Assembly: GCA_041600755.1 (NCBI GenBank) | Contig: JBFIJL010000001.1 | Location: 56,798 to 120,797, forward strand | From: Candidatus Saccharimonadales bacterium | Lineage (GTDB): Bacteria > Patescibacteriota > Saccharimonadia > Saccharimonadales > JAXHNE01 | Length of the DNA: 64,000 nt | Reading direction: 5' to 3' | Part shown: in pieces, positions 13-47,813 of the stretch | Layout: every line of letters starts with the position of its first letter | Position numbering within the stretch: the stretch's first letter is position 1 | Made by a program: the position numbers and the translations under genes | Notes under the pieces: generated by a model | Told to the model about the DNA's origin: nothing | The model's input: the letters and a program-made list of their open reading frames with translations, nothing else | Database searches by the model: none

Positions 13-69
13 CAAGAAAAAAGCCCTAGAATTATCTAAGGCTTTCATCATGGTGGAGCTGGCGGGCAC
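13..69 (-). repeat. Direct repeat: partial copy of the tmRNA 3' end (last 19 nt) plus 38 nt of downstream terminator; the 57 nt are identical to 185..241
   Basis: caagaaaaaagccctagaattatctaaggctttcatcatggtggagctggcgggcac occurs at 13-69 and 185-241. Revcomp of the end is GTGCCCGCCAGCTCCACCA, a tmRNA acceptor/CCA end. Copy 1 lacks the upstream T-stem partner, so it is a non-functional fragment. Confidence 0.8.
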
Positions 70-184
70 GAACACTTAATAAGCTGCTCGGCAACCTGGC
101 AAAAGCCAGGCTCGCAGGACAAGCAAGGAAAACTCAAATAGCCGCTGGCTATTTTCGCCCTCTCGGGCAGTGCCCAAACTTAAA

Positions 185-222
185 CAAGAAAAAAGCCCTA
201 GAATTATCTAAGGCTTTCATCA
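185..222 (-). terminator. Rho-independent terminator immediately 3' of tmRNA
   Basis: In RNA sense, directly after CCA: AAAGCCTTAGA-TAAT-TCTAGGGCTTTTTT (8-bp stem with one GU, 4-nt loop, T-run). Confidence 0.6.
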
Positions 223-3198: not shown

Positions 3199-5421
3199 CT
3201 AAGTAATTTTTTCCAGTGGTGCAAACTGGATATTGAGCGTCTTATTACCTTTGGATTTGAAATAAATAGTCGCTGTATCGCCATCCATCGATATGATCTT
3301 GCCAATACCAAATAGCTGGTGTTTCACGGTGTCGCCTTCATCAAGGGTTGGGTACTCTTGGCTTTCGTCATAGCTTGGCATGTCGTCAACAAACTGCGGT
3401 GGACGGGGCGGCTTGGGCGCCTCGGTTGGTTTAGTATACCCAGACTGCTGCCTGTCAGCGAACGACTTGAAACTTCCACCAGACAATCCAGCCGCTCGTT
3501 CTGAATCGAGCAATGAACTGTCAATTTCACTCATAAACCTACTAGGTGGATTATGTTGCACTCCTCCGTATAACATTCTGCTCACGGCATGCATCATATA
3601 CAATTCTGATTTTGCACGAGTCATACCCACGTAACACAACCGACGCTCTTCTTCCATTTCTGACTGATCGTATAATGCCCTGGAATGTGGGAATAGCGAC
3701 TCCTCCATGCCCATCATGAACACCACCGGAAACTCCAGACCTTTTGCAGCATGGAGAGTCATAAGCGTAACTGCATTACTATTTTCATCAAAGCTATCCA
3801 GGTCGCTTACGAGCGCAATTTCCTCTAAGAATCCATCAAGTCCTACATCTTGGTATTGTTGTGCTACGCTCAAAAGCTCTTGTACGTTTTCTTTACGCGA
3901 TTCGCCCTGAGCTGAGCCGTCATCTATGAACGCCAAGTAGTCCAAACGCTTCACGAGAGCCTCCAGTAGCTCCGGAAGAGGTCGGTCATTCATGACTTCT
4001 CTGAAGCTGATCAGTAGGTCTGCTATGTCTCTGAAGCCCTTGATGGCTTTTGGTGTTAGTTTCATTGAGTCTACGTCAGCCAGTGCCTGAATTAGGGTAA
4101 CCCCACTCGCATTCATGTAATCATTAAATACTTGCAGCGATTTTGCACCAATGCCTCTCGTCGGTGTATTTACAATCCGCTGAAAACTCACCCGATCTTC
4201 GGGCTGATACAGCAAACGCAAGTACGCCATTATGTCCTTGATCTCCTTGCGATCATAAAATCTAACACCGCCAACAACACGATATGGCACTCCATAGCGT
4301 ACGAAAGCTTCTTCGATGGACCGACTCTGTGCATTCGTTCGGTAAAGAACTGCAAAATCCTTGAACTGCCGGAGTCCATGTTGCAGTGCAGTTTGTACTC
4401 GCGTCACAACGAGCTCTGCCTCTGCGCGCTCATTAAAAGCCTCGATAACCTTAACTGGCTGACCTTTAGCACCATCTGTCCATAGCTGTTTTTTGGAACG
4501 CTGCTCATTCTTGGTAATCACCGCGTGGGCGGCATCCAGAATTGCTTTGGTGCTGCGATAGTTTTGTTCCAGCTTGATTACAGACACGCCTGGATGATCA
4601 TTTTCAAAATTTAGAATATTGCGGAAATCTGCACCACGCCAAGAATAAATACTCTGCCAATCATCGCCAACAACAGCTATATTGTTTGCCGAGCTTGTGA
4701 GCAGTCGCACCAGCTTATACTGCGCAGCATTGGTGTCCTGATACTCATCAATCATCACGTATTTGAATTGCTTTTGCCACTTTGCGCGGATTTCTTCGTG
4801 GTACTCCATGAGATGCACTGTCTTAGAAATCAAGTCGTCAAAATCAAGTGCTCCGTTATCCTTAAGCATCTTTTCGTACAAGGGGTAGACTTTTGCGGCA
4901 GCGACTTGAGTTGGACTTTTAGTCGAGCCGGCAAATTTATCAGGTCCAATCAGGTCATTCTTGGCGCTACTAATAACATGGGATAGGCCACGGGCTGGAA
5001 AAGCTTTCTCGTCAAGCGACAAACGCTTACTGACTTGCTTAATGGCTGACTGTCGATCAGATTCATCAAAGATTACAAAATTTTTAGGCACACCAACGTG
5101 ATCGCCGTCTTGGCGAAGTAACCGCACACAAATACTGTGAAAGGTCCCCATATACGGCATAAAACTTCGGTTATCCGGGTTTTGTCCCAGTAGCTCTGCA
5201 ACGCGAGTTCGCATTTCACCCGCCGCCTTGTTCGTGAACGTCACCGACAATATGTTATATGGTGTAGCCTTTTTGGTATCGATAAGATAGGCAATGCGAT
5301 GAGTAAGGGTTTTTGTCTTGCCAGATCCGGCGCCGGCCTGAATCAGTAATGGACCTTCGGTCGTCTCGACCGCACGTCGCTGTTCATCATTTAATCCTGT
5401 AAGTAAGTCATTTTGCATGCT
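3199..5421 (-). CDS. uvrD: ATP-dependent DNA helicase UvrD/PcrA family
   Basis: LNDEQRRAVETTEGPLLIQAGAGSGKTKTLTHRIAYLI (motif I) and DEYQDTN (motif II). ~740 aa with a C-terminal extension (…GIGKIISMDGDTATIYFKSKG). Confidence 0.9.
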   Translation of the reverse strand, partial: SMQNDLLTGLNDEQRRAVETTEGPLLIQAGAGSGKTKTLTHRIAYLIDTKKATPYNILSVTFTNKAAGEMRTRVAELLGQNPDNRSFMPYMGTFHSICVRLLRQDGDHVGVPKNFVIFDESDRQSAIKQVSKRLSLDEKAFPARGLSHVISSAKNDLIGPDKFAGSTKSPTQVAAAKVYPLYEKMLKDNGALDFDDLISKTVHLMEYHEEIRAKWQKQFKYVMIDEYQDTNAAQYKLVRLLTSSANNIAVVGDDWQSIYSWRGADFRNILNFENDHPGVSVIKLEQNYRSTKAILDAAHAVITKNEQRSKKQLWTDGAKGQPVKVIEAFNERAEAELVVTRVQTALQHGLRQFKDFAVLYRTNAQSRSIEEAFVRYGVPYRVVGGVRFYDRKEIKDIMAYLRLLYQPEDRVSFQRIVNTPTRGIGAKSLQVFNDYMNASGVTLIQALADVDSMKLTPKAIKGFRDIADLLISFREVMNDRPLPELLEALVKRLDYLAFIDDGSAQGESRKENVQELLSVAQQYQDVGLDGFLEEIALVSDLDSFDENSNAVTLMTLHAAKGLEFPVVFMMGMEESLFPHSRALYDQSEMEEERRLCYVGMTRAKSELYMMHAVSRMLYGGVQHNPPSRFMSEIDSSLLDSERAAGLSGGSFKSFADRQQSGYTKPTEAPKPPRPPQFVDDMPSYDESQEYPTLDEGDTVKHQLFGIGKIISMDGDTATIYFKSKGNKTLNIQFAPLEKIT

Positions 5422-10404: not shown

Positions 10405-10578
10405 TTCAGAAACTCACGGGGAATACTTGGGTATATTCTGCTTAAGCTGCGAGTGAGCGAGCTCCCTCGGTCTTGCCTGAATATCGACCCCTCGTTCGCT
10501 ATGCTCACTTATTTCGGGGTTCGCTTCCGCCAGGCAATACAAAGAAAAATAGACCAGCATTAGCTGATCTATTTTTCT
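10405..10578 (-). repeat. tRNA-Glu downstream segment. It begins with a 12-nt partial copy of the tRNA-Glu T-arm/acceptor 3' strand (ctcacggggaat) and ends with the tRNA terminator.
   Basis: ctcacggggaat at 10410-10421 matches tRNA-Glu 10586-10597 and is followed by gtatattctgc, a motif shared with the tRNA-Arg segment at 33485-33598 (tRNA-Gly segment at 39674-39727 has the variant ggtattctc). Terminator hairpin tagaccagc-att-agctgatcta plus T-run abuts the tRNA 3' end. Confidence 0.4.
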
Positions 10579-10653
10579 TGGTGATCTCACGGGGAATCGA
10601 ACCCCGATTGCCAGGATGAAAACCTGGTGTCCTAACCGTTAGACGATGAGACC
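10579..10653 (-). tRNA. tRNA-Glu (anticodon TTC)
   Basis: Revcomp GGTCTCATCGTCTAACGGTTAGGACACCAGGTTTTCATCCTGGCAATCGGGGTTCGATTCCCCGTGAGATCACCA: cloverleaf folds, anticodon loop TTTTCAT, CCA encoded. Confidence 0.85.
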
Positions 10654-19198: not shown

Positions 19199-19576
19199 TT
19201 GGTGCAAAAAATAGCCATCGTGCAGCATGATGATGCAATACGCAACATGTACAAGCTCAAGTTTGAGCAAGGACGATTTAGGGTCAAAACCGCCCGCTGC
19301 GGTCAAACTGCATTGGACCTACTGCGTGATTTTTGGCCGGACGTCGTTCTTATGGACATGCACCTGCCATTTTTGAGTGGTCTTGAGGCTGTAGAAAGAC
19401 TCCAAAATTATCCGTTATTTTCTCGGCCTAAAATTATTTTGACTTCAAATCTTGACGAAGAACAGGCGGCCAAAAAGTTTGGACACCTTGGAATTGATGG
19501 CTACATCCTAAAAGCGAACCACACTCCTTCTGAAATTCTTGGTATAGTACAAGGTATGATTGGAGCAACAGCTTGA
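19199..19576 (+). CDS. Stand-alone receiver-domain protein, paralog 2 (divergent acidic pocket QHDD)
   Basis: IAIVQHDD...VVLMDMHLP...IILTSN...YILKA. 4-nt overlap with the next paralog (translational coupling). Confidence 0.75.
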   Translation: MVQKIAIVQHDDAIRNMYKLKFEQGRFRVKTARCGQTALDLLRDFWPDVVLMDMHLPFLSGLEAVERLQNYPLFSRPKIILTSNLDEEQAAKKFGHLGIDGYILKANHTPSEILGIVQGMIGATA

Positions 19577-19938
19577 AAAAAATTATCCTCGTCGAAGATG
19601 ATGAGATGTTGGCAGAAATATACCAAACTAGATTGCAACTTGCAGACTTTGAATGCAAACGAGCCAATAATGGACTGGCTGGACTGGAACTCATCCAAAA
19701 AGAACTACCTGACCTCGTATTACTTGATCTGATGATGCCGATAATGTCAGGCGATCAAGTGCTTGAAGCAATTCGTACCAGCGACTGGGGAAAAGACATG
19801 AAAGTCATAATCCTTACCAATATTAGTGAGGCAGAAGCACCAGACATTATTAACGAGCTCGGTATCGAACGCTACATCGTAAAAGCCAATATTGTCCACG
19901 ATCAACTGGTTGAGGCTGTTAACGAAGTCCTAAAATAG
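19573..19938 (+). CDS. Stand-alone receiver-domain protein, paralog 3
   Basis: IILVEDD...LVLLDLMMP...VIILTN...YIVKA. Confidence 0.8.
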   Translation: MKKIILVEDDEMLAEIYQTRLQLADFECKRANNGLAGLELIQKELPDLVLLDLMMPIMSGDQVLEAIRTSDWGKDMKVIILTNISEAEAPDIINELGIERYIVKANIVHDQLVEAVNEVLK

Positions 19939-24029: not shown

Positions 24030-24636
24030 CAGACTCAGGCTGTAGCACCACTACGTTGTGAATATTTGCAATTTGCTTAATCTCGTTTTCTATCCAGTGA
24101 TAATGCGTACAGCCCAAAACTATTACATCAGCTCCCTTATCGCAAACAGCTGAAATTGTTTCTGCAATTTTTTCTTCATTTAGAGTTGAGCTCTCGATAA
24201 GTGCCGCCCAGTCCGAGCAGTCTGGCTCGATCACTGTCAGATTCTTTGCATAATTCTGCTTTAACCAAGCATAACGCTTACTTTTAAGTGTCGCTGGTGT
24301 AGCGCAAATTGCTATGACTCCTGATTTTGATTGCATTGAAGCGGGCTTCACCATTGGTTCGATGCCAATAATTGGAATATCTGTGCTGGCTCTGAGAAAT
24401 TCGATAGAATTAGTCGTTGCTGTGTTGCAGGCTAAGACTATGACTTCGCAGCCCTTACTGACAAATTTTACGATAAATGGCAGCAGGAGTTCATTTAGCT
24501 GAGCTACTGATTTATTTCCATAAGGTATGTTTTCACTGTCTTCAAGATATATTACTTCATGTTCCGGATAGGCTCTTGAGATAGCATTGACTACCGATTT
24601 GCCACCAATACCAGAATCGAATACGCCAATTTTCAT
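23986..24636 (-). CDS. murI: Glutamate racemase
   Basis: KIGVFDSGIGGKSV..., ...IPYGNKS..., ...VLACNTAT..., ...LGCTHYH... motifs; 216 aa (short); 3' end overlaps murD 3' end convergently by 44 nt. Confidence 0.75.
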   Translation of the reverse strand: MKIGVFDSGIGGKSVVNAISRAYPEHEVIYLEDSENIPYGNKSVAQLNELLLPFIVKFVSKGCEVIVLACNTATTNSIEFLRASTDIPIIGIEPMVKPASMQSKSGVIAICATPATLKSKRYAWLKQNYAKNLTVIEPDCSDWAALIESSTLNEEKIAETISAVCDKGADVIVLGCTHYHWIENEIKQIANIHNVVVLQPESAIVRQLARVIEQLA

Positions 24637-32422: not shown

Positions 32423-32938
32423 CTAAAGTTTTCTACTGTCATACGCCCAATGAAGCAATGCCTGACGTTGACGCGGGCGGCATGATTCATCACCTACGTT
32501 ACAGTTTTTCTTTAGCTGCGACACGTGACGTCGCATTGCCTTCCAGCGCTTGATTTGCCTCTCGTCTTCTTTGGTTATTCTTCGCCCCAGATAGTATCGG
32601 CAATACCACAAAAACCAACCTTTTGGGTCTTCAAAGTATATCCATCCCCTTTTTTGCCACTCTTCTAAAGATTTACTAGCGTTAATTTTGAAATAATTCA
32701 ACTGCTTATCTGAAGTTCCAATTTTTGAAAACCTCACTCCGTCAAACCATTCATCTGGAAACTCATGGGGTGGTTCTGTGAAATAGTCACCCCCAAATAC
32801 TCCAAGACTCAGCATTTCGCTTGGAGTTAAATCTGGAGTAAAGTTGTGTGAAAAATGCTTACCAGCCGATTCGGTCAATGTATACGAATACCCTGATTGA
32901 TACAGCTCGTTGACTTCGACAACTGAGCCTTTCTGCAT
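32423..32938 (-). CDS. Hypothetical protein (171 aa, Trp/Tyr-rich)
   Basis: No recognised family; 1-nt stop/start overlap with the upstream 2H phosphoesterase gene. Confidence 0.4.
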   Translation of the reverse strand: MQKGSVVEVNELYQSGYSYTLTESAGKHFSHNFTPDLTPSEMLSLGVFGGDYFTEPPHEFPDEWFDGVRFSKIGTSDKQLNYFKINASKSLEEWQKRGWIYFEDPKGWFLWYCRYYLGRRITKEDERQIKRWKAMRRHVSQLKKNCNVGDESCRPRQRQALLHWAYDSRKL

Positions 32939-33465
32939 CAGACAAGCTCGATTAATTCAACAACTTGTCGCATGCGGTGATTGTCGTCAGGAAACATATC
33001 AATAAGTCCAACTGACTTTAGCGTAAACTGTTCACCCTCTTGGACGCGCCCGCTACGCTGAGCAGTCACATGGGGAGTATTATTTTCACCTGTGTAATGA
33101 GACTCAACAAACTTTATGCCTAGAGGCAAGAAACTGTTGATGACTGCTTGGTGCTGGAACAGTAAGTCCTCGTTGGCTTCAACAAGATTCGCTCGTGTTG
33201 CTCCCCATACTACCTCGTGGGACGCAACACGTTTGCGCCGTATGTTGAATTTGATGTCTCGAAATACTTCAATAACTTCTGGGGCTTCAGCATCAACGCC
33301 AAATGCCGGCGCAATCGTACAGTGCAGCGGCCATTCGCTTGCAAGAAACAACGATCCTTTTGCTGTACGGTCAATAAATCCAACGATACACCATTTTTGT
33401 GAATAGGCAGTCATGCTCTTAATAATAACAAAACTCAACCATTGGTTGAGTTCAATTTGGTGCAC
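32938..33465 (-). CDS. 2H phosphoesterase superfamily protein (LigT-like 2'-5' RNA ligase / cyclic phosphodiesterase)
   Basis: Two H-x-T-x motifs (PLHCTIAPAF and TPHVTAQRS) spaced as in LigT/2H enzymes. Confidence 0.6.
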   Translation of the reverse strand: MHQIELNQWLSFVIIKSMTAYSQKWCIVGFIDRTAKGSLFLASEWPLHCTIAPAFGVDAEAPEVIEVFRDIKFNIRRKRVASHEVVWGATRANLVEANEDLLFQHQAVINSFLPLGIKFVESHYTGENNTPHVTAQRSGRVQEGEQFTLKSVGLIDMFPDDNHRMRQVVELIELV

Positions 33466-33484
33466 CCGGTAGGATTACATAGTA
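33466..33484 (-). repeat. Partial direct copy (19 nt) of the tRNA-Arg(TCG) 3' end, located 115 bp downstream of the gene
   Basis: tggtgcacccggtaggatt is identical to 33599-33617; the copy boundary falls in the T-loop. Confidence 0.75.
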
Positions 33485-33598
33485 TATTCTGCCCGTATTG
33501 CCTGTAAATTCAGGCGGGAGAATATCGAACCTTGACGGTTCGACTTGCCTAGGCAAGTAAACCAAGTAAAATACCCATCCAAAGATGGGCACTTTACT
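33485..33598 (-). repeat. tRNA-Arg downstream segment between the 3'-end copies (contains the tRNA terminator and the shared motif gtatattctgc)
   Basis: Terminator cccatc-caaag-atggg + T-run abuts the tRNA; segment also has gtattgcctg, which appears inverted in the tRNA-Glu segment. Confidence 0.45.
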
Positions 33599-33675
33599 TG
33601 GTGCACCCGGTAGGATTCGAACCTACGACACCTGGTTCCGAAGACCAGTGCTCTAATCCGCTGAGCTACGGGTGC
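33599..33675 (-). tRNA. tRNA-Arg (anticodon TCG)
   Basis: Revcomp GCACCCGTAGCTCAGCGGATTAGAGCACTGGTCTTCGGAACCAGGTGTCGTAGGTTCGAATCCTACCGGGTGCACCA; anticodon loop CTTCGGA. Confidence 0.85.
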
Positions 33676-35823: not shown

Positions 35824-37083
35824 CTAGCTTGGCAATGGAAACCCTTTTGCAAAATCTATCACTTCATTGCGAATAGATTGCAATTTGTCTTGATTCTCGT
35901 AATTTTTTATAGCCTGGTTGATCCATTCAGCAACCAGTACCATTTCCGCTTCTTTCATTCCACGCGTCGTGAGTGCTGGCGTGCCTAGGCGTAGACCACT
36001 CGGATCGAATGGCTTACGCGTATCAAAAGGCACCGTGTTCTTATTTGCAGTAATGCCGACAGCGCCAAGTGCATTCTCTGCCTGCTTGCCAGTAATGCTT
36101 TTATTTTGCAAGTTTATCAGCAGTAGATGATTGTCTGTGCCACCGGTTATCAGCTGGAAATCCTTTTTATTGAGCTCATCTGCCAACACCTGTGCGTTTT
36201 TCACCACCTGTGCTCCATATTGCCTAAACTCATCAGTTGCCGCTTCCTTGAGCGCCACTGCGATCGCTGCGGTCTGATGATTGTGTGGACCGCCCTGAAG
36301 CCCAGGAATTATCGCCCGATCAATCAACGATGGGATGTTCTCTTTGGTTCGCTCCACCTTCTTTAGTGGCGTCGATGGGTTCCCATTACTCATAATCAGT
36401 GCTCCACGTGGGCCTCGAAGAGTTTTATGAGTAGTCGTAGTAATCACATCTGCAATGCCCGCTGGCGAAGGATGTACGCCCGCTACAACTAATCCTGCAA
36501 TGTGCGAAATATCTGCCAAAAACCATGCGCCAACAGAATCAGCAATTTCACGCAGTCGTTGCCAATCAAAAATTCTTGGATAGGCCGTAGCCCCGGCAAT
36601 CAATAAACGTGGCTTATGTTCAAGAGCCAGCGCAGCTATGGCATCATAGTCAAGATACCCATCCTTGCCTGTCTGATAACCAACTGAATTGTAAAGTGTG
36701 CCTGAAAAATTCACTTTCAATCCATGAGTTAAATGTCCGCCAAAATACATATCTAGCCCCATGACTGTGTCACCCGGATCTAACAACGCATAATAGGCTG
36801 CGAGATTCGCAGGAGAACCTGAATAAGCCTGAACGTTCACATGATCGACTCCAAAAAGCTTCTTGGCGCGATCACGTGCAATGTTCTCTACCTGATCCAC
36901 ATACTCACATCCACCGTAGTATCGTGATCCTGGATAACCTTCTGAGTATTTATCTGTAAGTCGAGAGCCAAGTGCCTTCAACACCGCTCCAGACGTATGA
37001 TTTTCACTAGGAATCATTTCAAGACCCTCGGCTTGTCGTGCAGTTTCTTTCGCAATAAGTGTTTCAATCTCTGTATCGTGCAT
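35824..37083 (-). CDS. glyA: Serine hydroxymethyltransferase
   Basis: LEMIPSENHTSGAVLKALGSRLTDKYSEGYPGSRYYGGCEYVD and the PLP-lysine region TTTTHKTLRGPRG. Confidence 0.9.
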   Translation of the reverse strand: MHDTEIETLIAKETARQAEGLEMIPSENHTSGAVLKALGSRLTDKYSEGYPGSRYYGGCEYVDQVENIARDRAKKLFGVDHVNVQAYSGSPANLAAYYALLDPGDTVMGLDMYFGGHLTHGLKVNFSGTLYNSVGYQTGKDGYLDYDAIAALALEHKPRLLIAGATAYPRIFDWQRLREIADSVGAWFLADISHIAGLVVAGVHPSPAGIADVITTTTHKTLRGPRGALIMSNGNPSTPLKKVERTKENIPSLIDRAIIPGLQGGPHNHQTAAIAVALKEAATDEFRQYGAQVVKNAQVLADELNKKDFQLITGGTDNHLLLINLQNKSITGKQAENALGAVGITANKNTVPFDTRKPFDPSGLRLGTPALTTRGMKEAEMVLVAEWINQAIKNYENQDKLQSIRNEVIDFAKGFPLPS

Positions 37084-37208: not shown

Positions 37209-38729
37209 ATGATGAACACCAACGAAAAAATAGGCAATCTTATTTACCAACTACGACAAGAGCGCGGTTTAACTCAAGCAGAGTTTGCGCGCAAGATGGG
37301 CACCAGCCAAAGTGCCATAAACCGCATCGAAAAAGGTAGACAAAATCTCAGCCTAGAAACACTTGGACGAATAAGTGACGTATTACAGAAACCAATAATC
37401 ACTATTTCAGGCCAGTCAATAAACTTTCGGGTTGAAGGTGGACACGAGCTTTCAGGCACCATAGAAACAAAAAGCGCAAAGAATAGCGCAGTTGCTTTGC
37501 TGTGCGCAAGCTTACTAAACAAAGGGACGACAAAGCTTATTAACGTTCCTCGCATTGAGGAAGTAAATCGTATAGTTGAAGTGCTTCAGAGTATTGGAGT
37601 GAGCATAAAATGGTTCAACGGAAACTCTCTCGAGATTAAGCCGCCAGAAACACTGGACCTTAGCAACATTGACGCACAGTCGGCACGACGCACCAGAAGC
37701 GTAATCATGCTTGCAGGACCCCTGCTGCACGAATTCAAAGAATTCAAAATACCATATGCCGGTGGATGCAAGCTCGGCAAACGATCTGTTCAGGCCCACC
37801 TATACGCTCTTGAGGACTTTGGGGTTGAAACAGACGTTGTAGTTGGTCACTACAAAATGACTGTCAAAGACCCCTCGGCTGCCGATGTCGTTCTATACGA
37901 AATGGGTGAAACACCGACTGAGAACATCTTGATGGCTGCGGCTCGCGCAACCGGCACATCAACTATCAAAATGGCGTCGTCAAACTATAACATTCAAGAC
38001 CTTTGTTATTTCCTTAAGAAATTAGGCGTGAAGATTCAGGGCATTGGCACATCAAATCTTACTATTACTGGTGTTCCAGAAATCAGAAAGAATATTTCAT
38101 ACCATGTATGTGAGGACCCGCTCGATTCAATGTTCTTCATATCTGCGGCAGTTGCAACTAATTCGCAAATTACCATTACCAACACACCAACAGATTTTCT
38201 TGAAGTTGAGCTTATGAAGCTCGATAAAATGGGACTTGAAATCAAACGAGAGAACACTCACACCAGCCCCAATGGCTGGACCCACCTTGAGGACATAACA
38301 ATCCACAAGCACGATGGAAAATTAAAAGCTCCTGTAGAAAAATTACATCCTTTGCCTTTCCCAGGATTACTCCCAGACAACTTGCCGTTCTTTGTGCCAA
38401 TAGCAGCTGTAGCCAAAGGCCAGACATTGCTGCACGATTGGATGTACGAAAACCGAGCCATATACTTTACTGAACTCAGTCGACTTGGGGCAAACGTGGA
38501 GCTAATCGATGCACACCGAGTTTACGTCAAAGGCGCCACCAAGTTCTCACCGGCCGACATTACATGCCCACCCGCACTTCGTCCTGCTGCAATCCTACTC
38601 ATCGGCATGCTTGCAGCCGACGGTACAAGCAAGCTACGTAATATCTACTCTATTGCGCGCGGTTATGAAAACATAGCTGAACGCCTCAATAGCATCGGTG
38701 CAAAAGTCGAAGTTCTCAACGAACTTTAA
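37209..38729 (+). CDS. murA: UDP-N-acetylglucosamine 1-carboxyvinyltransferase fused to an N-terminal XRE-type HTH domain
   Basis: Residues ~5-70: LIYQLRQERGLTQAEFARKMGTSQSAINRIEKGRQNLSLETL (HTH_XRE). Remainder is EPT-fold MurA (KSAKNSAVALLCASLL...; total 506 aa vs ~420 for MurA alone). Confidence 0.7.
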   Translation: MMNTNEKIGNLIYQLRQERGLTQAEFARKMGTSQSAINRIEKGRQNLSLETLGRISDVLQKPIITISGQSINFRVEGGHELSGTIETKSAKNSAVALLCASLLNKGTTKLINVPRIEEVNRIVEVLQSIGVSIKWFNGNSLEIKPPETLDLSNIDAQSARRTRSVIMLAGPLLHEFKEFKIPYAGGCKLGKRSVQAHLYALEDFGVETDVVVGHYKMTVKDPSAADVVLYEMGETPTENILMAAARATGTSTIKMASSNYNIQDLCYFLKKLGVKIQGIGTSNLTITGVPEIRKNISYHVCEDPLDSMFFISAAVATNSQITITNTPTDFLEVELMKLDKMGLEIKRENTHTSPNGWTHLEDITIHKHDGKLKAPVEKLHPLPFPGLLPDNLPFFVPIAAVAKGQTLLHDWMYENRAIYFTELSRLGANVELIDAHRVYVKGATKFSPADITCPPALRPAAILLIGMLAADGTSKLRNIYSIARGYENIAERLNSIGAKVEVLNEL

Positions 38730-39314: not shown

Positions 39315-39632
39315 TTAATGTGAAATTTGACGCAAGTGATGCGCAATTACATCTGCTGCAGGTATATAGTCTTTCGACCATTGCTGTGCTATAGAATCAT
39401 CATCCTTGACGATCATCGCTACTGGGAGCGTCTCTGGCATTATGTCATAGAAGTCACGAACCTTTTCACCGTCTGGCGTACGCACATTAAGCACGACTAC
39501 CTGGTGTGGACAATGTTGAGCTATCTCGGATTTGAGCCGCTCAAACTTTCGTGTTTCCATCATCGAGGCATTGCTCAAAACATAAAGTGCAGCGCCTTCA
39601 TTGTCTGAAATGCTAGTGAAATCTAAACCCAT
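39315..39632 (-). CDS. Hypothetical protein (105 aa)
   Basis: No recognised motif; good-length ORF between tRNA genes. Confidence 0.35.
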   Translation of the reverse strand: MGLDFTSISDNEGAALYVLSNASMMETRKFERLKSEIAQHCPHQVVVLNVRTPDGEKVRDFYDIMPETLPVAMIVKDDDSIAQQWSKDYIPAADVIAHHLRQISH

Positions 39633-39653: not shown

Positions 39654-39672
39654 TGGTGCGGGTGGAGAGAAT
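39654..39672 (-). repeat. Partial direct copy (19 nt) of the tRNA-Gly 3' end, 55 bp downstream of the gene
   Basis: tggtgcgggtggagagaat is identical to 39728-39746; boundary again in the T-loop; followed by ggtattctc (related to gtatattctgc in the Arg/Glu segments). Confidence 0.75.
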
Positions 39673-39727
39673 ACTTTGGTATTCTCATTCCCTTACAGAA
39701 AATATTCAAGTGAACTTGACTGCTTTC

Positions 39728-39802
39728 TGGTGCGGGTGGAGAGAATCGAACTCTCGTTTCCAGCTTGGAAGGCTAGCATATTAACCACTATAAGACACCC
39801 GC
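39728..39802 (-). tRNA. tRNA-Gly (anticodon TCC)
   Basis: Revcomp GCGGGTGTCTTATAGTGGTTAATATGCTAGCCTTCCAAGCTGGAAACGAGAGTTCGATTCTCTCCACCCGCACCA; anticodon loop CTTCCAA. Confidence 0.75.
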
Positions 39803-42786: not shown

Positions 42787-42803
42787 TTGGTCGGGGTGAG
42801 AGG
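42787..42803 (-). repeat. Partial direct copy (17 nt) of the tRNA-Pro 3' end (outer copy)
   Basis: ttggtcggggtgagagg is identical to 47667-47683 (the same sequence at the tRNA-Pro 3' end). Confidence 0.7.
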
Positions 42804-42950
42804 GATCGCTAGAGTACTCACACTTCAGCTTCCCTGCGCTCGAGGCCAAGCAAGGAAAACTCAATATGCCACAGGCATATTTCGCCTGTCGGTTCGAGTC
42901 CCTAAACTCAAAGCAAATAAAAATACACAGACATATGCCTGTGTATTTTT
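42804..42950 (-). repeat. Ancestral tRNA-Pro downstream segment, now displaced; its internal ~50 nt are homologous to tmRNA downstream segment 70-184
   Basis: ctcgaggccaagcaaggaaaactcaatatgccacaggcatatttcgcc matches ctcgcaggacaagcaaggaaaactcaaatagccgctggctattttcgcc at 112-160. Palindromic terminator acacagacatatgcctgtgt + T-run abuts the 10-nt tRNA-end copy at 42951-42960. Confidence 0.5.
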
Positions 42951-43252
42951 ATTGGTCGGGTCAGAACGACACTCAGCGAACCTACCTACAAGCCAGCCTT
43001 TATGGGATTTTGCGAAACCATCAACAATTTAGGGATAAGGTCGAGAAGCTACAACGCATTGTCGATAACGCCGTAAAGCCAGAGGGCTTGGAGCTTATCA
43101 AGTTCGTGTAGCGTATAATGTAGATAATATGAGCGACGCCGACGAAACCAAAGAAAACGCAATGCTTCAAGAAAGTGAAGTTGTAGAGTTGCCACCGCAA
43201 CAATCAGCGACCGATACGAGCAACTGGGACAATAAAGTCTTTACTGACCCAA

Positions 43253-44530
43253 GTGGTGAAAAGTATATCCGAACTCTACCTAACGAAGATAGCGAATAGT
43301 CATAACGGGTACAATTTTATGCCAACTATTGACCAGCAGATTGCACAAGAAGAAGCACGAATAAAAAGTACTCTTGGAAACTTCTCTTCAATTATTACCA
43401 ACGCCCAAAAATCTACTAAAGAGAGCCATAATTACAAAATCCTTACAATTCAATTTGATGAGTGTAGGCTTGTTGCCTACGTTCTTGAACACTTGCTGAA
43501 TTGCAAAACAGCTTGGCTTCCTATAGAGAAAGTTCATTGGTGGTCTAGCTTCTCGTACGACGGAGTATACTGTTCAATTGCTCATCAAAAGTTCGGATTT
43601 AATTTGTATATCTCTGGTGGACTAAATAAAAACGATGCTGACAAGTTAGCTAAAAAGTTAATAGCTGAGTTAGAGACAATCGTTGCAACGCTAAGCAAAG
43701 TTACGACGCTCTATGCGAAAAAAGCCGTGAAGGTTGGTAATATCATCCTTCACAATAAGATGCAAAGCCTTGAGGATAGGTACGTATATTATCGTGATGC
43801 TAGCTTTGTTGAGCTTGATACCAAAGCAGAACTTGACAGTATAATGGGCGAAAATGATGGAGAAGTCGTTGAGTTGGGTGTACACGACGAAAAAGACGAC
43901 AAGGACTTAGACAAGAAAGTAGTCGAGACTATGGAGCGTCTTGCTGTATATAGGCGAAAATCGAGTGTTCATCTCTATAATCAGGAGGTTGCAATCATAT
44001 ACTTCTTGAGCTTGGTTGAGCACATATGCCTACTTCTTTATGCGTTTAATCACGATGGAGGCAGTGTAGTTGATTTAGCGATGAAGGGTTGGGGCGAAAA
44101 GTTTGAAAAGGTTATTGGTACTGCGGATAAAGATATTGAAGAGGGGTATCTGTATCTAAGGAAAGTCGCCCTATATAAACGAAACCCTATCACTCACGGC
44201 TTCTTAACTCCTAAGATGACCGAAGCGAGCTTCTACTTTAAGCCAGCACGGCAACGGACGCCAATAAACTTATTTGATGGAGAGCTTTTGGGTGAATATG
44301 GCTACGAGGTAGATTTAGCAAAACTTGACAAGCTACTGGCAGATATAAGGAAAAGTCCGAAGTTTCACAACGCTATGCGCTATATAGGAAATAGTGAGTT
44401 TGATATTAGCTATGATACTGGCAGTATGGCAGAGTTTGAATTAGTGAATAAGATGACCGAAGGCGATTTAGTGGAATACCTCGATGCAGTATCGTGGAGA
44501 TATAATAACGCCGCTAATATGGACTGGTAA
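43253..44530 (+). CDS. Hypothetical island cargo protein (425 aa)
   Basis: Long clean ORF, AT-rich, no recognisable catalytic motif; preceded by ~290 bp non-coding. Confidence 0.5.
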   Translation: MVKSISELYLTKIANSHNGYNFMPTIDQQIAQEEARIKSTLGNFSSIITNAQKSTKESHNYKILTIQFDECRLVAYVLEHLLNCKTAWLPIEKVHWWSSFSYDGVYCSIAHQKFGFNLYISGGLNKNDADKLAKKLIAELETIVATLSKVTTLYAKKAVKVGNIILHNKMQSLEDRYVYYRDASFVELDTKAELDSIMGENDGEVVELGVHDEKDDKDLDKKVVETMERLAVYRRKSSVHLYNQEVAIIYFLSLVEHICLLLYAFNHDGGSVVDLAMKGWGEKFEKVIGTADKDIEEGYLYLRKVALYKRNPITHGFLTPKMTEASFYFKPARQRTPINLFDGELLGEYGYEVDLAKLDKLLADIRKSPKFHNAMRYIGNSEFDISYDTGSMAEFELVNKMTEGDLVEYLDAVSWRYNNAANMDW

Positions 44531-44739
44531 GCCCCCACCCATCGAACACGTCATTTTAGAAAAGCTTGTAAACGCACTTGTAGGCTAAAAATACGTCAGT
44601 GACAAAAAATGGTTTGTTTTGCCGTTTTACCCAACAATTATGAACAGAGGTCGGAGTTAAAAAATCGCCCAACAAACCAGAAGAACAGTAACAGGGGTGG
44701 ACTGTTGGCTACTTACAAAATCTGTTGGGAATAAAAGAT

Positions 44740-45402
44740 TTAGTTCTTGATGAGATGCTTCGTAAATCCGTTTTCCACAAGAACATTAAAGGACTGCCAA
44801 ACACTCTCTGGAATATCCTGTTCAATCTGAAAGCCTAGTGATGGAAAGACTTTAATACGCTGTAAGTCACCAACCATAATGTTTATAAACTGTTCTTTAG
44901 AGCTACTATCGGTTAACATATCGTCATAGCTGAGAGCAGGAGACGTGACGATAACCTCAGTGGAGCTATCTGACCATTGCTTCTTAAATGTTGCATATGC
45001 CCTACGCTCCATATAGGGTTTTGTAACGATAATTAAAGACTTGGGCTGTACGCTTTTACTGTCGAGTAGTTCTTGTGTAAATCGAATATTTTCACCTGTG
45101 TTTGTAGACTTTTCCTCGATAAGGATTTTATCTTCAGACACTCCATTGCCGATAGCAATATCCCTAAATAATTCTGCCTCAGTCGTATTGTTGCTGTGCT
45201 GGGTTATCTTGCCGTAACCACCCGAAAATATAAGCAAATCACTATAACCATCAAGAAAGAGTTGGCTCGCTCGCTCGGCAACCCTGCTTTCTGATGAACC
45301 TAGCCCTAATATTACATCGGCTTTCTCAATCGGCATATTGAGTAGCATATAGTCGAATACGACTTTTGCGTGCTCGTCTACGTTCATTAAATCTCTTTCC
45401 AA
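44740..45402 (-). CDS. DUF218 (YdcF/ElyC-like) domain protein
   Basis: ...VILGLGSSESRVAERASQLFLDGYSDLLIFSGGYG...EKSTNTGENIRFTQELL matches the DUF218 core. Confidence 0.55.
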   Translation of the reverse strand: MERDLMNVDEHAKVVFDYMLLNMPIEKADVILGLGSSESRVAERASQLFLDGYSDLLIFSGGYGKITQHSNNTTEAELFRDIAIGNGVSEDKILIEEKSTNTGENIRFTQELLDSKSVQPKSLIIVTKPYMERRAYATFKKQWSDSSTEVIVTSPALSYDDMLTDSSSKEQFINIMVGDLQRIKVFPSLGFQIEQDIPESVWQSFNVLVENGFTKHLIKN

Positions 45403-45803
45403 AAGCAGGTGTAATCACTGCCCTTAGTAAAGCCCAATTGGTTATATCGACTATCTAAGTCGGCATTTCCTACTGGCGTGTAGACTAGCACTTGAGAGTG
45501 ACCACGACCCCTTAGAACCTCTACGGCTTTATCGTGGAGAGCTTTGGTTACGTCTCCGTTTGCTAGATGTACAGCAAAACGAAATAGCCAAGCAACACGA
45601 CCATCGTCGACAAGAGATACAGTGCCCACAATCTTTTCGTCTTCAACAGCAACAAGGATTGCATCGGTGTCTACTTCAATCTTTTTTCTAAGTCTGTCGC
45701 TAGCGTCACGCGCTTCGTCGAACTGACCACCAAGCGTATCGCTATCTAAGTAGAGAGCTTTGAGTTGCTCGTAATCAGATGGCTCGTAACTCCTTATAAT
45801 CAT
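45387..45803 (-). CDS. GNAT family acetyltransferase
   Basis: 138 aa, ...ILVAVEDEKIVGTVSLV...RGRGHSQVL... acetyl-CoA-binding-like motif; 16-nt overlap with the DUF218 gene. Confidence 0.5.
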   Translation of the reverse strand: MIIRSYEPSDYEQLKALYLDSDTLGGQFDEARDASDRLRKKIEVDTDAILVAVEDEKIVGTVSLVDDGRVAWLFRFAVHLANGDVTKALHDKAVEVLRGRGHSQVLVYTPVGNADLDSRYNQLGFTKGSDYTCFWKEI

Positions 45804-45850
45804 AGTTTTATTATATACCAGAAAACCGTTGAACCTATTTACAAGCTATA

Positions 45851-47679
45851 ATGATGGACAGTATGGCTACAGGAGATAAGAAAACCAGAACACGCAAGAA
45901 GCAAGTGCTTGTACCGCTTAGTGATAAGCAGTTGAAGCAAGCCGAGAGTGTAGTAGCCGAAAGCCTAAAAGATAACCCTGAACTGTTCAACCTGCCAGAG
46001 AGTAGATACACGGTTGAGGGTCTCGTAGACTTCTACGTGCAGTCGATAGCGGGTAGCAGAAAGATACTACCTAAAGAGAAACGACGCTATGTAGTCTACT
46101 TACGTAAATCCACTGATGACGAACGTAAACAAGTGAGGTCGATTGACGACCAGAGAAAAGAGTGCCTAGATTTAGCCAAGAGGCTTGATATTAAAGTACG
46201 ACCTGAGGATATTTTCGAGGAAAGACAGTCGGCAAAAATCTCTGGCAAACGTGACATATTCAATGACATTATGGAGGGTTTTGAGAGAGGTAAATATCAC
46301 GGTTAAATCTCGTGGTCACCTGACCGATTGTCACGCAATATGTTAGGGGTGGCCAGATTATCGAGCACGTAGATTACGAGAAGATACAGGATTTACTATT
46401 CTGCACTTACGCTTTCGACAACACACTAAACGGCAAAATGATGCTTGGTATTTTGTTTGCTACGTCAAAGCAATATAGCGACAAACTAGCGGTTGATGTG
46501 GCTCGTGGCATTACAGGTGCTATCCACGAGGGCAAGTATGTTGGTCTAGTCAAAAAGGGCTACTATGCTGACACTGACAATGGACGGTTTATGCCAGACG
46601 GCGTACATTGGCAGTTATTACGCCAAGCCGTTGTTATGCGACTAAAAGACCGCAAGACCAATCAAGAGATAGCAGACTTCTTAAACGCCTCAAACTTTAG
46701 CTTTCGCAAAAGCCAAGATGACCCCTACAAAAAAGCAAAAATGGACAAAAAGACAGTTGCAACAATGTTTGCCGACCCCTTTTACACGGGTGCTTACAAG
46801 TATGGCGATAACATAGCCAACCTAAAAGACACCTATAACTTTTTGCCCCTGATGACACCCGACGAGTTTATAGCGTTAAGCAAGAATATGTCGGATAGTT
46901 TCAATAAAGAGTTTGTTGGTCGCAGTAACGTTGCTAAACGGCTAGATTTCGGATTGCTTCGAGAAAAGGTTATTTGCGACTATTGCGATAAACCGATGGG
47001 CTTCCAGAGGACAAAGATACCAAGAGGCAAAAACCAAGGTCGCTATATGATAAGTTTCTATTGCCGAGATAATGGTCAGGGCTGTCTACGTCATAATAAC
47101 GAAGAAGCTATAAAACAGTACGGAAAGAAGCTCAGCAAGAGTGTTAGGCTCAAAGATATAACGCCACACATCGCTTGGACGATACAGAACTGCACTAAAG
47201 ACAGCAAGAAAGCCTACGACTACTACATTGAACGTCTGAAAAGTGAGGTTGCCGTTAAACGTGAGACTGCTAAACGCAAGCTGGCTGATGCTAAAAAAGA
47301 AGTTGCTAAGCAAGAAGAGATGCTAGCCCAGTATCAGAACTTTCAAGTAAAGCACCCTGAAGATTATCAGAAGTACCACAAGAATAAGCTAGAGGAGCAT
47401 CAACAACTCCTTGATGTACATAGTGTAAGTGTCTCTAAACTAGAGAAAGAACTCGAAAAACTCAAACAAGATTTACCAACCCGCAAAGAGTTTGCTGAAC
47501 TCGTCCAATCGTATCTGTTAATACTACGTACAACCCGTGATTTGGTGGAAGAGGACGAAGTGTACAAAGAGATGGTGTTGAACCTGCGTGTTAGGGACGA
47601 CTCCGCCCCTGTTATAAAGCTAAATCCACCATACGATATGATGGTGGATTTTAGCGAAAATACTTCTTGGTCGGGGTGA
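45851..47679 (+). pseudogene. Large serine recombinase (integrase) disrupted by an in-frame TAA (46304-46306) and a frameshift (~46335-46365)
   Basis: N-terminal YVVYLRKSTDDERKQVRSIDDQ (catalytic Ser region); after the TAA the same frame continues ISWSPDRLSRN (resolvase DRLxR motif). A different frame then reads GGQIIEHVDYEKIQD...MMLGILFATSKQYSDKLAVDVARG, followed by the recombinase domain and Cys zinc ribbon (CDYCDKPMG...FYCRDNGQGC) and a coiled coil. Last codons TSWSG* are encoded by the tRNA-Pro 3' end. Confidence 0.6.
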
Positions 47680-47742
47680 GAGGACTCGAACCTCCGACCT
47701 CACGGTCCCAAACCGCGCGCGCTAGCCAACTGCGCCACACCC
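47668..47742 (-). tRNA. tRNA-Pro (anticodon TGG)
   Basis: Revcomp CGGGGTGTGGCGCAGTTGGCTAGCGCGCGCGGTTTGGGACCGTGAGGTCGGAGGTTCGAGTCCTCTCACCCCGACCA; anticodon loop TTTGGGA. Confidence 0.85.
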
Positions 47743-47813
47743 CGTTAGTCTAGTGGCTTTTGCCACTAGAAAACTTACAGTATTATAACAGAAATTATTG
47801 TACTGACCAGTGT

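Follow-up and report, generated by a model that had tools for sequence, protein, structure and literature searches.

Short, gene-less inserts stand directly behind the 3' ends of tRNA and tmRNA genes in a Candidatus Saccharimonadales bacterium and in its relatives, and the reading to which we give roughly even credence is that they are non-autonomous mini integrative cassettes, members of a family that appears to be widespread in Saccharibacteria and so far undescribed. This reading is built on their anatomy, family relationships, target-specific inverted arms, foreign terminators, turnover between species and conserved structure, all of them observed directly. The stretch of DNA analysed (the window) is 64,000 nucleotides long with 44.7% G+C, and holds seven tRNA genes and one tmRNA gene, all of which score as intact.

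Followed in the direction of the tRNA, a typical unit begins with the 3' end of the gene (X) and a foreign hairpin terminator. Next comes X', an inverted and degenerate version of the T-arm and acceptor 3' strand of that tRNA, and then a small hairpin formed by T-loop sequence (TCGAACC...GGTTCGA). A 50-90 nt body precedes the second copy of X, after which there is another terminator. The typical terminator has an A/T-rich stem, often extended so that the CCA of the tRNA pairs with a TGG after it, and most units are then followed by an intrinsic terminator. The mini-units are non-coding and, at 55-154 bp, too short for a gene.

Tail copies behind tRNA and tmRNA genes

The tRNA-Gly(tcc) gene (39728-39802, reverse strand; called by ARAGORN, 62.5 bits for the Rfam tRNA model) is intact and ends in the 19 nt ATTCTCTCCACCCGCACCA (proximal X, 39728-39746, reverse strand, read from the sequence), which comprise T-loop positions A58-U60, the 3' strand of the T-stem, the 3' strand of the acceptor stem, the discriminator and CCA. 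A second copy (distal X, 39654-39672, reverse strand), identical at 19/19 positions, lies on the same strand 55 bp downstream of the gene. This exact copy, which the sequence-only reading had picked out, is real: within the window TGGTGCGGGTGGAGAGAAT is present at 39654-39672 and 39728-39746 and nowhere else, even when up to 3 mismatches are allowed, and its failure to appear in 100 dinucleotide-preserving shuffles (0 matches) rules out a chance repeat. An assembly artefact is ruled out by the like architecture found in many independent assemblies.

Between its two copies of X the Gly unit has no body, only two hairpins. The left part of the spacer holds hairpin 1 and then a T-run (39697-39727, reverse strand; TCAAG-TTCA-CTTGA inside GAAAG/TTTTC), predicted to be a weak terminator-like element for tRNA-Gly. 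Hairpin 2 (39667-39686, reverse strand) has the form GAGAATAC-CAAA-GTATTCTC, its left arm being a residual X' and its right arm running from the last two bases of the spacer 6 nt into the distal copy. The whole 74-nt unit folds with z=-4.4 as RNA and z=-3.3 as DNA. The motif ggtattctc in the spacer, previously proposed to be related to a motif of the Arg and Glu segments, is the complement of GAGAATACC and does align with the right-end motif GCAGAATATACC. Since the right end of the Gly unit, AGAATACCAAAGT then ATTC, aligns with that of the inserts that we call family A (AGAATATACCCAAGT then ATTC at tRNA-Glu), the Gly unit can be read as a family A-type unit that has been stripped down. Among the inserts, which span 55-170 bases, it is the smallest and the oldest.

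A search with the serine hydroxymethyltransferase (SHMT) gene of the window (35824-37083) gave 80 loci of relatives. Almost all of these carry the label Saccharibacteria or Saccharimonadales, and the top match has 80% amino-acid identity. The Gly unit is orthologous in the closest relative, MAG ASO77 (L001), at an SHMT identity of only 80%; the spacer is 87% identical between the two and the distal copies are alike at 18/19 positions, while the T-stem of the L001 tRNA-Gly has since changed, so that the two L001 copies differ at two positions. Substitutions fall at 0 of 42 paired and 8 of 32 unpaired positions (p=7e-4): the stem of hairpin 1 is identical with differences confined to the loop, and hairpin 2 has an invariant stem around a loop that reads CAAA in the window and CTTA in L001. 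Given this orthology, and with all eight substitutions unpaired, the Gly unit is not recent but old and constrained. The earlier suggestion of a recurrent 3'-end-targeting recombination system thus stands over evolutionary time, whereas its description as active or recently active is not supported for the Gly locus, given this orthology, or for the sole recombinase of the window, which is a pseudogene.

Homology and synteny between the window and L001 stop exactly at the CCA of the distal Gly copy, and from there to tRNA-Arg(tct) the DNA of the two is unrelated. In the window this interval contains a 105-aa open reading frame (ORF; 39315-39632, reverse strand) with no Pfam match and no homologue in the relatives searched; in most relatives tRNA-Gly and tRNA-Arg(tct) are directly adjacent. 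The unit itself is confined to the window and L001, 2 of about 37 relatives, and at the tRNA-Gly of a further locus (L141) there is a decayed unit in the form of a body-less triple copy. Distal copies are better conserved than expected of neutral relics, as the Gly copy is across species, which indicates a function beyond that of a scar; with the conserved hairpins, this leaves room for a role as RNA or as a protein-binding or folded DNA site. As to polymorphism between strains, records of the neighbouring VIT1 protein come from just one contig.

When the 3' part of each of the eight tRNA and tmRNA genes was compared with the rest of the window, a copy of the gene's own 3' end was recovered at five, the tmRNA, Glu, Arg(tcg), Gly and Pro genes, as the sequence-only reading had counted; none was found in the window for tRNA-Lys, tRNA-His or tRNA-Arg(tct). 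The direct repeats match the 3' part of the target at 19/19 positions for Gly, Arg and tmRNA and 16/16 for Pro, and extend over 12 nt for Glu. A 13-nt tRNA-Lys-like match at 24497-24509 lies inside coding sequence and was taken as chance.

Behind the tmRNA gene (223-602) stands a unit of family B (13-222, reverse strand; X' and body 70-184), whose distal X is a 19-nt copy at 51-69, 153 bp from the tmRNA end. This is the sole case in which the terminator is duplicated too: its 38 nt recur in full (185-222 and 13-50), so that the direct repeat is 57 nt long (13-69 and 185-241), 19 nt of tmRNA plus the whole 38-nt terminator; the window edge cuts what comes after. The tRNA-Glu gene (10579-10653) is followed by a decayed family A unit (10413-10578, reverse strand) with a degenerate, partial distal copy of 12 nt (10413-10424) at a distance of 154 bp. 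Another family A unit (33458-33598, reverse strand) follows tRNA-Arg(tcg) (33599-33675), with a 19-nt distal copy (33458-33476) 122 bp away, and shows the full order of foreign terminator, X', the hairpin P0 (TCGAACC/GGTTCGA), P1 (ATATTC/GAATAT) and distal copy, with a further terminator after the unit (33453-33431).

Directly after the Arg unit comes a 175-aa ORF (32938-33465) without Pfam match, which is extra relative to L001 and absent there. With this ORF and the one at 39315-39632, the tRNA-distal copies seem to mark the edge of variable DNA. Elsewhere in the window, 37209-38729 (forward strand) encodes a 506-aa protein in which an N-terminal Xre-type HTH is joined to an EPSP-synthase/MurA-type domain, a fusion also called in L141.

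Among the relatives, at least 15 of the 197 tRNAs in the 80 loci have a copy of their own 3' end just downstream; an apparent Arg-ccg copy in L072 turned out to be an adjacent tRNA gene. Thirteen of these copies are exact over 15-21 nt and end at CCA, and the distances are mostly 147-169 bp, with two of about 56 bp (as at Gly) and one of 2.2 kb. Four further units in relatives were found by body homology. The copies are enriched in the window (5/8 against 15/197; Fisher p=2.5e-4), which bears out the earlier claim that the pattern is recurrent and not chance. The targets of units include Arg, Lys, Gly, Pro, His and Trp tRNAs and tmRNA. In a pattern scan of metagenomes, real units made up 3 of 24 hits.

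Comparison of presence and absence in related genomes, proposed earlier as a check, reveals turnover at single genes. At tRNA-Lys the window has no unit where L001 has one of family A, and tRNA-Arg(tcg) is followed by a family A unit in the window and by a family D unit in L001, with flanking genes conserved.

Inverted arms, terminators and body families

X' is closer to the reverse complement of its own tRNA's 3' end than to that of others (p=1.2e-5); the tmRNA unit has GGGCACTGCCC as X', to be set against the unusual T-arm GGGCGGTGCCC of the tmRNA. X' is often paired with the distal X in minimum-free-energy folds. With X'-to-X complementarity of only about 75%, no sense-strand wobble bias found in X', and an RNAduplex energy test that could not tell cognate pairs from non-cognate ones, a folded site made of X' and X is plausible rather than demonstrated.

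Outside the tmRNA locus, the terminators after the proximal and the distal copy resemble each other no more than random pairs do (p=0.34). This implies that the tRNA-proximal terminator came in with the insert, and thereby favours integration of a pre-formed element over local duplication; duplication in situ of X together with its terminator finds no support on the same ground outside the tmRNA locus, where the 57-nt repeat would also fit a local duplication. An elaborated version, in which X-terminator-X'-X'' formed in place by two template switches (at the terminator hairpin and at the T-arm hairpin) as an inverted triplication, and bodies were inserted later into the spare T-loop, strikes us as very improbable. 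It would account for the unbroken palindrome that runs from the terminator stem via CCA/TGG into X', for the second turn at the T-arm, for the inclusion of the whole terminator in the tmRNA repeat and for body-less triple copies such as that at the L141 tRNA-Gly. The unlike terminators speak against it, as does the fact that X'' is usually exact and X' about 75% identical, which under neutrality would make them of different ages, and it leaves unexplained why the same body families recur at different tRNAs.

The segments between copies are indeed related to one another, which the sequence-only reading had made a test of its view: Glu and Arg share one family, tmRNA and Pro another, and the Gly right end resembles the first. 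Family A comprises the window Glu and Arg units, the L001 Lys unit, a unit at a metagenomic tRNA-Trp and those of the metagenomic contig L132; its motifs are GGTTCGATATTC ... GCAGAATATAC, and it has two invariant stems, the 'gtatattctgc' motif being the 3' strand of one of them. Family B includes the window tmRNA and Pro units together with L016 Pro and L079 Arg, family C has nine copies that occur only in relatives, and family D is represented by L001 Arg-tcg and L079 Arg-tct. All nine family C bodies are oriented alike relative to the tRNA, and an invertible switch is therefore ruled out.

The structure of the units is under selection. In family C a three-hairpin structure has 95% of its cells paired, as against 74% in shuffles and about 40% in slid controls, and 20 of its 32 pairs change on both sides; the fold of the Gly unit and its substitutions at unpaired positions point the same way.

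Such constraint also raises the question whether the units are kept by the host as functional structured nucleic acids, a small RNA or a cis element ending in a mimic of the tRNA 3' end, with mobility secondary or ancient, a reading that we consider unlikely. Besides the strong covariation, family C conserves a G-U pair on the tRNA-sense strand, and the Gly unit has been kept in two species that differ in it at unpaired positions only. At tRNA-Pro the distal X has stayed exact though the locus is old enough to be common to L141, and the two units of L132 have an identical 19-nt X and diverged bodies. The terminators that follow most units would be in keeping with a transcript, as would a promoter-like site inside the Arg family A body (TTTACA-16-TATACT, 33508-33481, reverse strand) that faces outward, so that a transcript from it would begin with the first bases of the distal X; a discrete RNA starting near the GAATATAC motif, or covering body and X, would follow if the RNA reading were true. 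On the other hand, promoter-like matches do not exceed the level seen in shuffles, and the -35 of other family A copies is weaker than that of the Arg unit; a strong terminator stands directly upstream of each unit, no Rfam family matches, and X' shows no wobble bias. Non-homologous bodies occupy one and the same tRNA in different species and most tRNAs have no unit, which selfish elements fit better than a host function.

Searches for a known RNA family gave the same answer at each scope. Rfam 15 returned only tRNA and tmRNA in the window at E<=1, and no match to family C in L033 at E<=10, and a known RNA family was accordingly dropped as the identity of the units.

The tRNA-Pro island and the search for an enzyme

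The longest interval in the window lies at tRNA-Pro (47668-47744), whose 16-nt copy (42788-42803) is 4864 bp away. The far end of the locus is a family B mini-unit (42788-42952, reverse strand) with terminator, X', body and the exact 16-nt copy, and between it and the gene is an island of about 4.7 kb (42953-47667, reverse strand) that carries a large serine recombinase pseudogene, a GNAT gene, a DUF218 gene and a 425-aa ORF of unknown function. The pseudogene (45887-47679, forward strand; Pfam PF00239, Resolvase, and PF07508, Recombinase) has an in-frame stop and a frameshift relative to the 619-aa protein P0001. Saccharibacteria often have an intact homologue of about 603 aa (333 hits), and in three loci the intact gene is convergent with tRNA-Pro(tgg) and runs into it, the overlap being 12 nt for L139 and L141 and 58 nt for L137. 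In L141 the composite is like that of the window: island, degenerate tRNA-like segment, terminator, X', body and an exact 17-nt copy.

The degenerate tRNA-like segment of the window (42953-42982) reads as the P half-site of an attR. It shares with tRNA-Pro only the core CCCGACCA(A), and its GGTTCG lies 5 bp farther from the core than in tRNA-Pro, the offset expected under the published model of a serine-recombinase attP half-site; it is thus probably such a half-site. The junctions of the island are distinct from those of the mini-unit, and the two therefore form two layers at one hot spot. The segment from RNase Y to tRNA-Pro stands in opposite orientation in L137 as compared with L139 and L141, with the recombinase on either side, which suggests an inversion with an end point at the hot spot.

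Islands at the same sites invite the reading that the units are passive scars, the fused attL-side and attR-side arms that were left when larger prophages or islands lost their interiors to deletion. We find this quite unlikely. It is consistent with the Pro island of the window, with the composite in L141 and with a 2.2-kb insert in L070, which carries a methyltransferase and an HExxH protein and no recombinase, and ends in a family C right end (about 27 nt shared) and a 15-nt copy. Remnant partial tRNAs are, moreover, known from island hot spots, and decay is plain in some units (window Glu, L010 and L038 Arg, L141 Gly). Random deletion, however, would not yield a narrow 147-169 bp class, covarying hairpins and a constant order of parts; the L070 island and family C have only those 27 or so nt in common, the serine-recombinase island has distinct junctions of its own, and the viral contigs and phage records searched held no larger element with mini-unit arms. 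A 430-aa protein of L070, considered as a relative of the 425-aa island ORF, is unrelated to it.

A Pfam scan of 32 ORFs of the window found nothing recombinase-related other than two fragments of the Pro pseudogene, none of 29 others being a recombinase or integrase, and the same 32 ORFs gave no match to TnpA- or TnpB-type genes. There are hairpins near the ends of the bodies. An IS200/IS605-type element was rejected: subterminal hairpins with neither target duplication nor inverted terminal repeats would be expected of it, yet the units are flanked by direct repeats of 15-57 nt. When viral contigs were scanned for exact motifs of families A, B and C, all hits lay in coding DNA and were put down to chance. 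The Glu and Pro units had no BLAST match among 50,697 phage records, and no relative of the Pro-island recombinase was found in the viral contigs. For none of the families did the collections searched yield a copy that was free, phage-borne or plasmid-like.

Integration model, related systems and significance

If the units are mini integrative cassettes, a small pre-formed DNA element, carrying X, its own terminator, a target-matched X' and usually a structured body, would recombine with a chromosomal tRNA gene inside X. The gene would be left intact, ending now in the element-borne X and a foreign terminator, and the host's original 3' end would be pushed to the far side, so that the insert comes to be flanked by direct repeats reaching from the start of the element's non-tRNA sequence (T-loop nt 54-61) to CCA. 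Crossover need not, then, have taken place at the shared T-loop boundary, which may simply mark the start of that non-tRNA sequence. X' and the distal X would form an imperfect hairpin around the body, resembling an attC- or CTX-type folded attachment site or else the arms of a duplex attP. As the units encode nothing, they must be moved in trans by a recombinase; integration would presumably proceed via a circular intermediate, and the folded form may be DNA or RNA. The Gly unit would be a stripped and ancient example that retains a terminator-like hairpin, the residual X' (GAGAATAC), a 4-nt loop and X, kept under structural constraint. Against the cassettes it counts that none of the scanned ORFs supplies a recombinase that can be assigned to the units, that the collections searched gave no free copy, and that distal copies are conserved beyond what neutral relics would be. 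For duplex recombination, 75-190 bp would also make a very small circle.

A second arrangement found in relatives also counts against them, in that it duplicates the 5' part of the tRNA, unlike classical tRNA-integrating elements. In these 'type 2' units a duplicate of tRNA nt 1-53 comes first and a family C body second; what is left of the T-loop, a short palindrome and an AT-rich stretch that looks like a promoter then lead up to the intact tRNA, so that the layout mirrors that of the 3'-end units (L008, about 1985-2167; L033, 9557-9738; L073, about 4195-4330, reverse strand; L023, about 19450-19640; L079, 4673-4759, reverse strand). The displaced copy retains the upstream module that is usual in its clade and that also precedes ordinary tRNAs. 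Both unit types could be derived from one circle containing a 5' segment, body, X, loop and X', where recombination on one side of the body would give one type and on the other side the other type.

The module itself is a conserved leader or promoter of about 130 nt with hairpins, found before several tRNA genes of one clade (L033, 9400-9556 and 13605-13758; L023, 19290-19450; L073, 4331-4500, reverse strand; L079, 2540-2685 and, on the reverse strand, 779-900), and had no Rfam match in the L033 stretch searched.

Units also occur in series. In L033 two stand in tandem, and in the metagenomic contig L132 (1760-2600, reverse strand) two family A-type units enclose an ORF for a 65-aa Cys-rich protein, each ending in the same 19-nt tRNA-like tail X. 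No tRNA gene was found on this 10-kb contig. A stand-alone RNA gene was considered for L132 and rejected, given the degenerate X and foreign terminator upstream and no tRNA on the contig; it is better read as the distal part of an array.

Several known systems share features with these units. Williams is said to have described, in 2002, a T-loop sublocation class among integrative elements that target tRNA and tmRNA genes, and like such elements the units show a direct repeat of a tRNA 3' segment and a gene restored by the element. They differ in being 55-170 bp long, in having no genes and hence no integrase or recombinase of their own as classical tRNA-integrating elements do, in the target-specific inverted arm and covarying body, and in the mirror form that in some relatives replaces the 5' part of the tRNA. 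CIMEs of Streptococcus are kilobases long, derive from identifiable ICEs, are flanked by att sites and have no recombination genes, and are presumed to be moved in trans; the units are like them, and by analogy like MITEs, in having attachment-site-like flanking repeats and no recombination genes, and unlike them in lacking an identified parent element or recombinase. The integron attC site and the folded single-strand attP of CTX phage place an imperfect inverted repeat around a variable structure, with a core of 7 nt in attC. The X'...X repeat, around a variable structured region at the distal end of the cassette, resembles attC, and units with or without an ORF in arrays resemble integron cassettes; unlike attC, the repeats of the units are 15-21 nt of tRNA, strand-specific X':X pairing gave no signal and the scanned ORFs of the window include no IntI or XerCD gene. 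Only the Pro island is like large serine recombinase (LSR) islands, with a Resolvase and Recombinase gene that converges on and overlaps the tRNA and with short-core junctions, whereas the mini-units have longer repeats and no recombinase. Partial tRNAs beside stacked integrative elements are an established hallmark, and targets of the tycheposons and islands of Prochlorococcus include tRNA-Pro(tgg), Arg(tct) and tmRNA (bioRxiv 10.1101/2020.12.28.424599). The units resemble these in being stacked, in their remnant partial tRNAs and in their overlapping targets.

It is possible, and we put it forward tentatively, that these are a new class of gene-less structured mini-cassettes in Saccharibacteria, which recognise tRNA and tmRNA genes by built-in direct and inverted copies of the segment from T-arm to CCA and replace the 3' or the 5' part of the gene, acting either as an attC-like site for a host recombinase or as a self-spreading RNA that mimics a tRNA end, with tRNA ends serving as integron-like docks for small ORF cassettes. 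If either the hairpin-site or the RNA-guided reading were true, the units would amount to a compact, naturally retargetable system specific for tRNA genes. In any event they are unannotated structured motifs that can confuse the annotation of tRNAs and islands.

Saccharibacteria and other CPR bacteria have tiny genomes with few recognised mobile elements, and how they gain and lose genes is poorly understood. Units stand at about 8% of the sampled tRNA genes of relatives and at five of eight in the window, and versions with cargo and a serine-recombinase island occupy the same sites. Together these suggest that tRNA 3' ends are main docks for genome flux in these bacteria.
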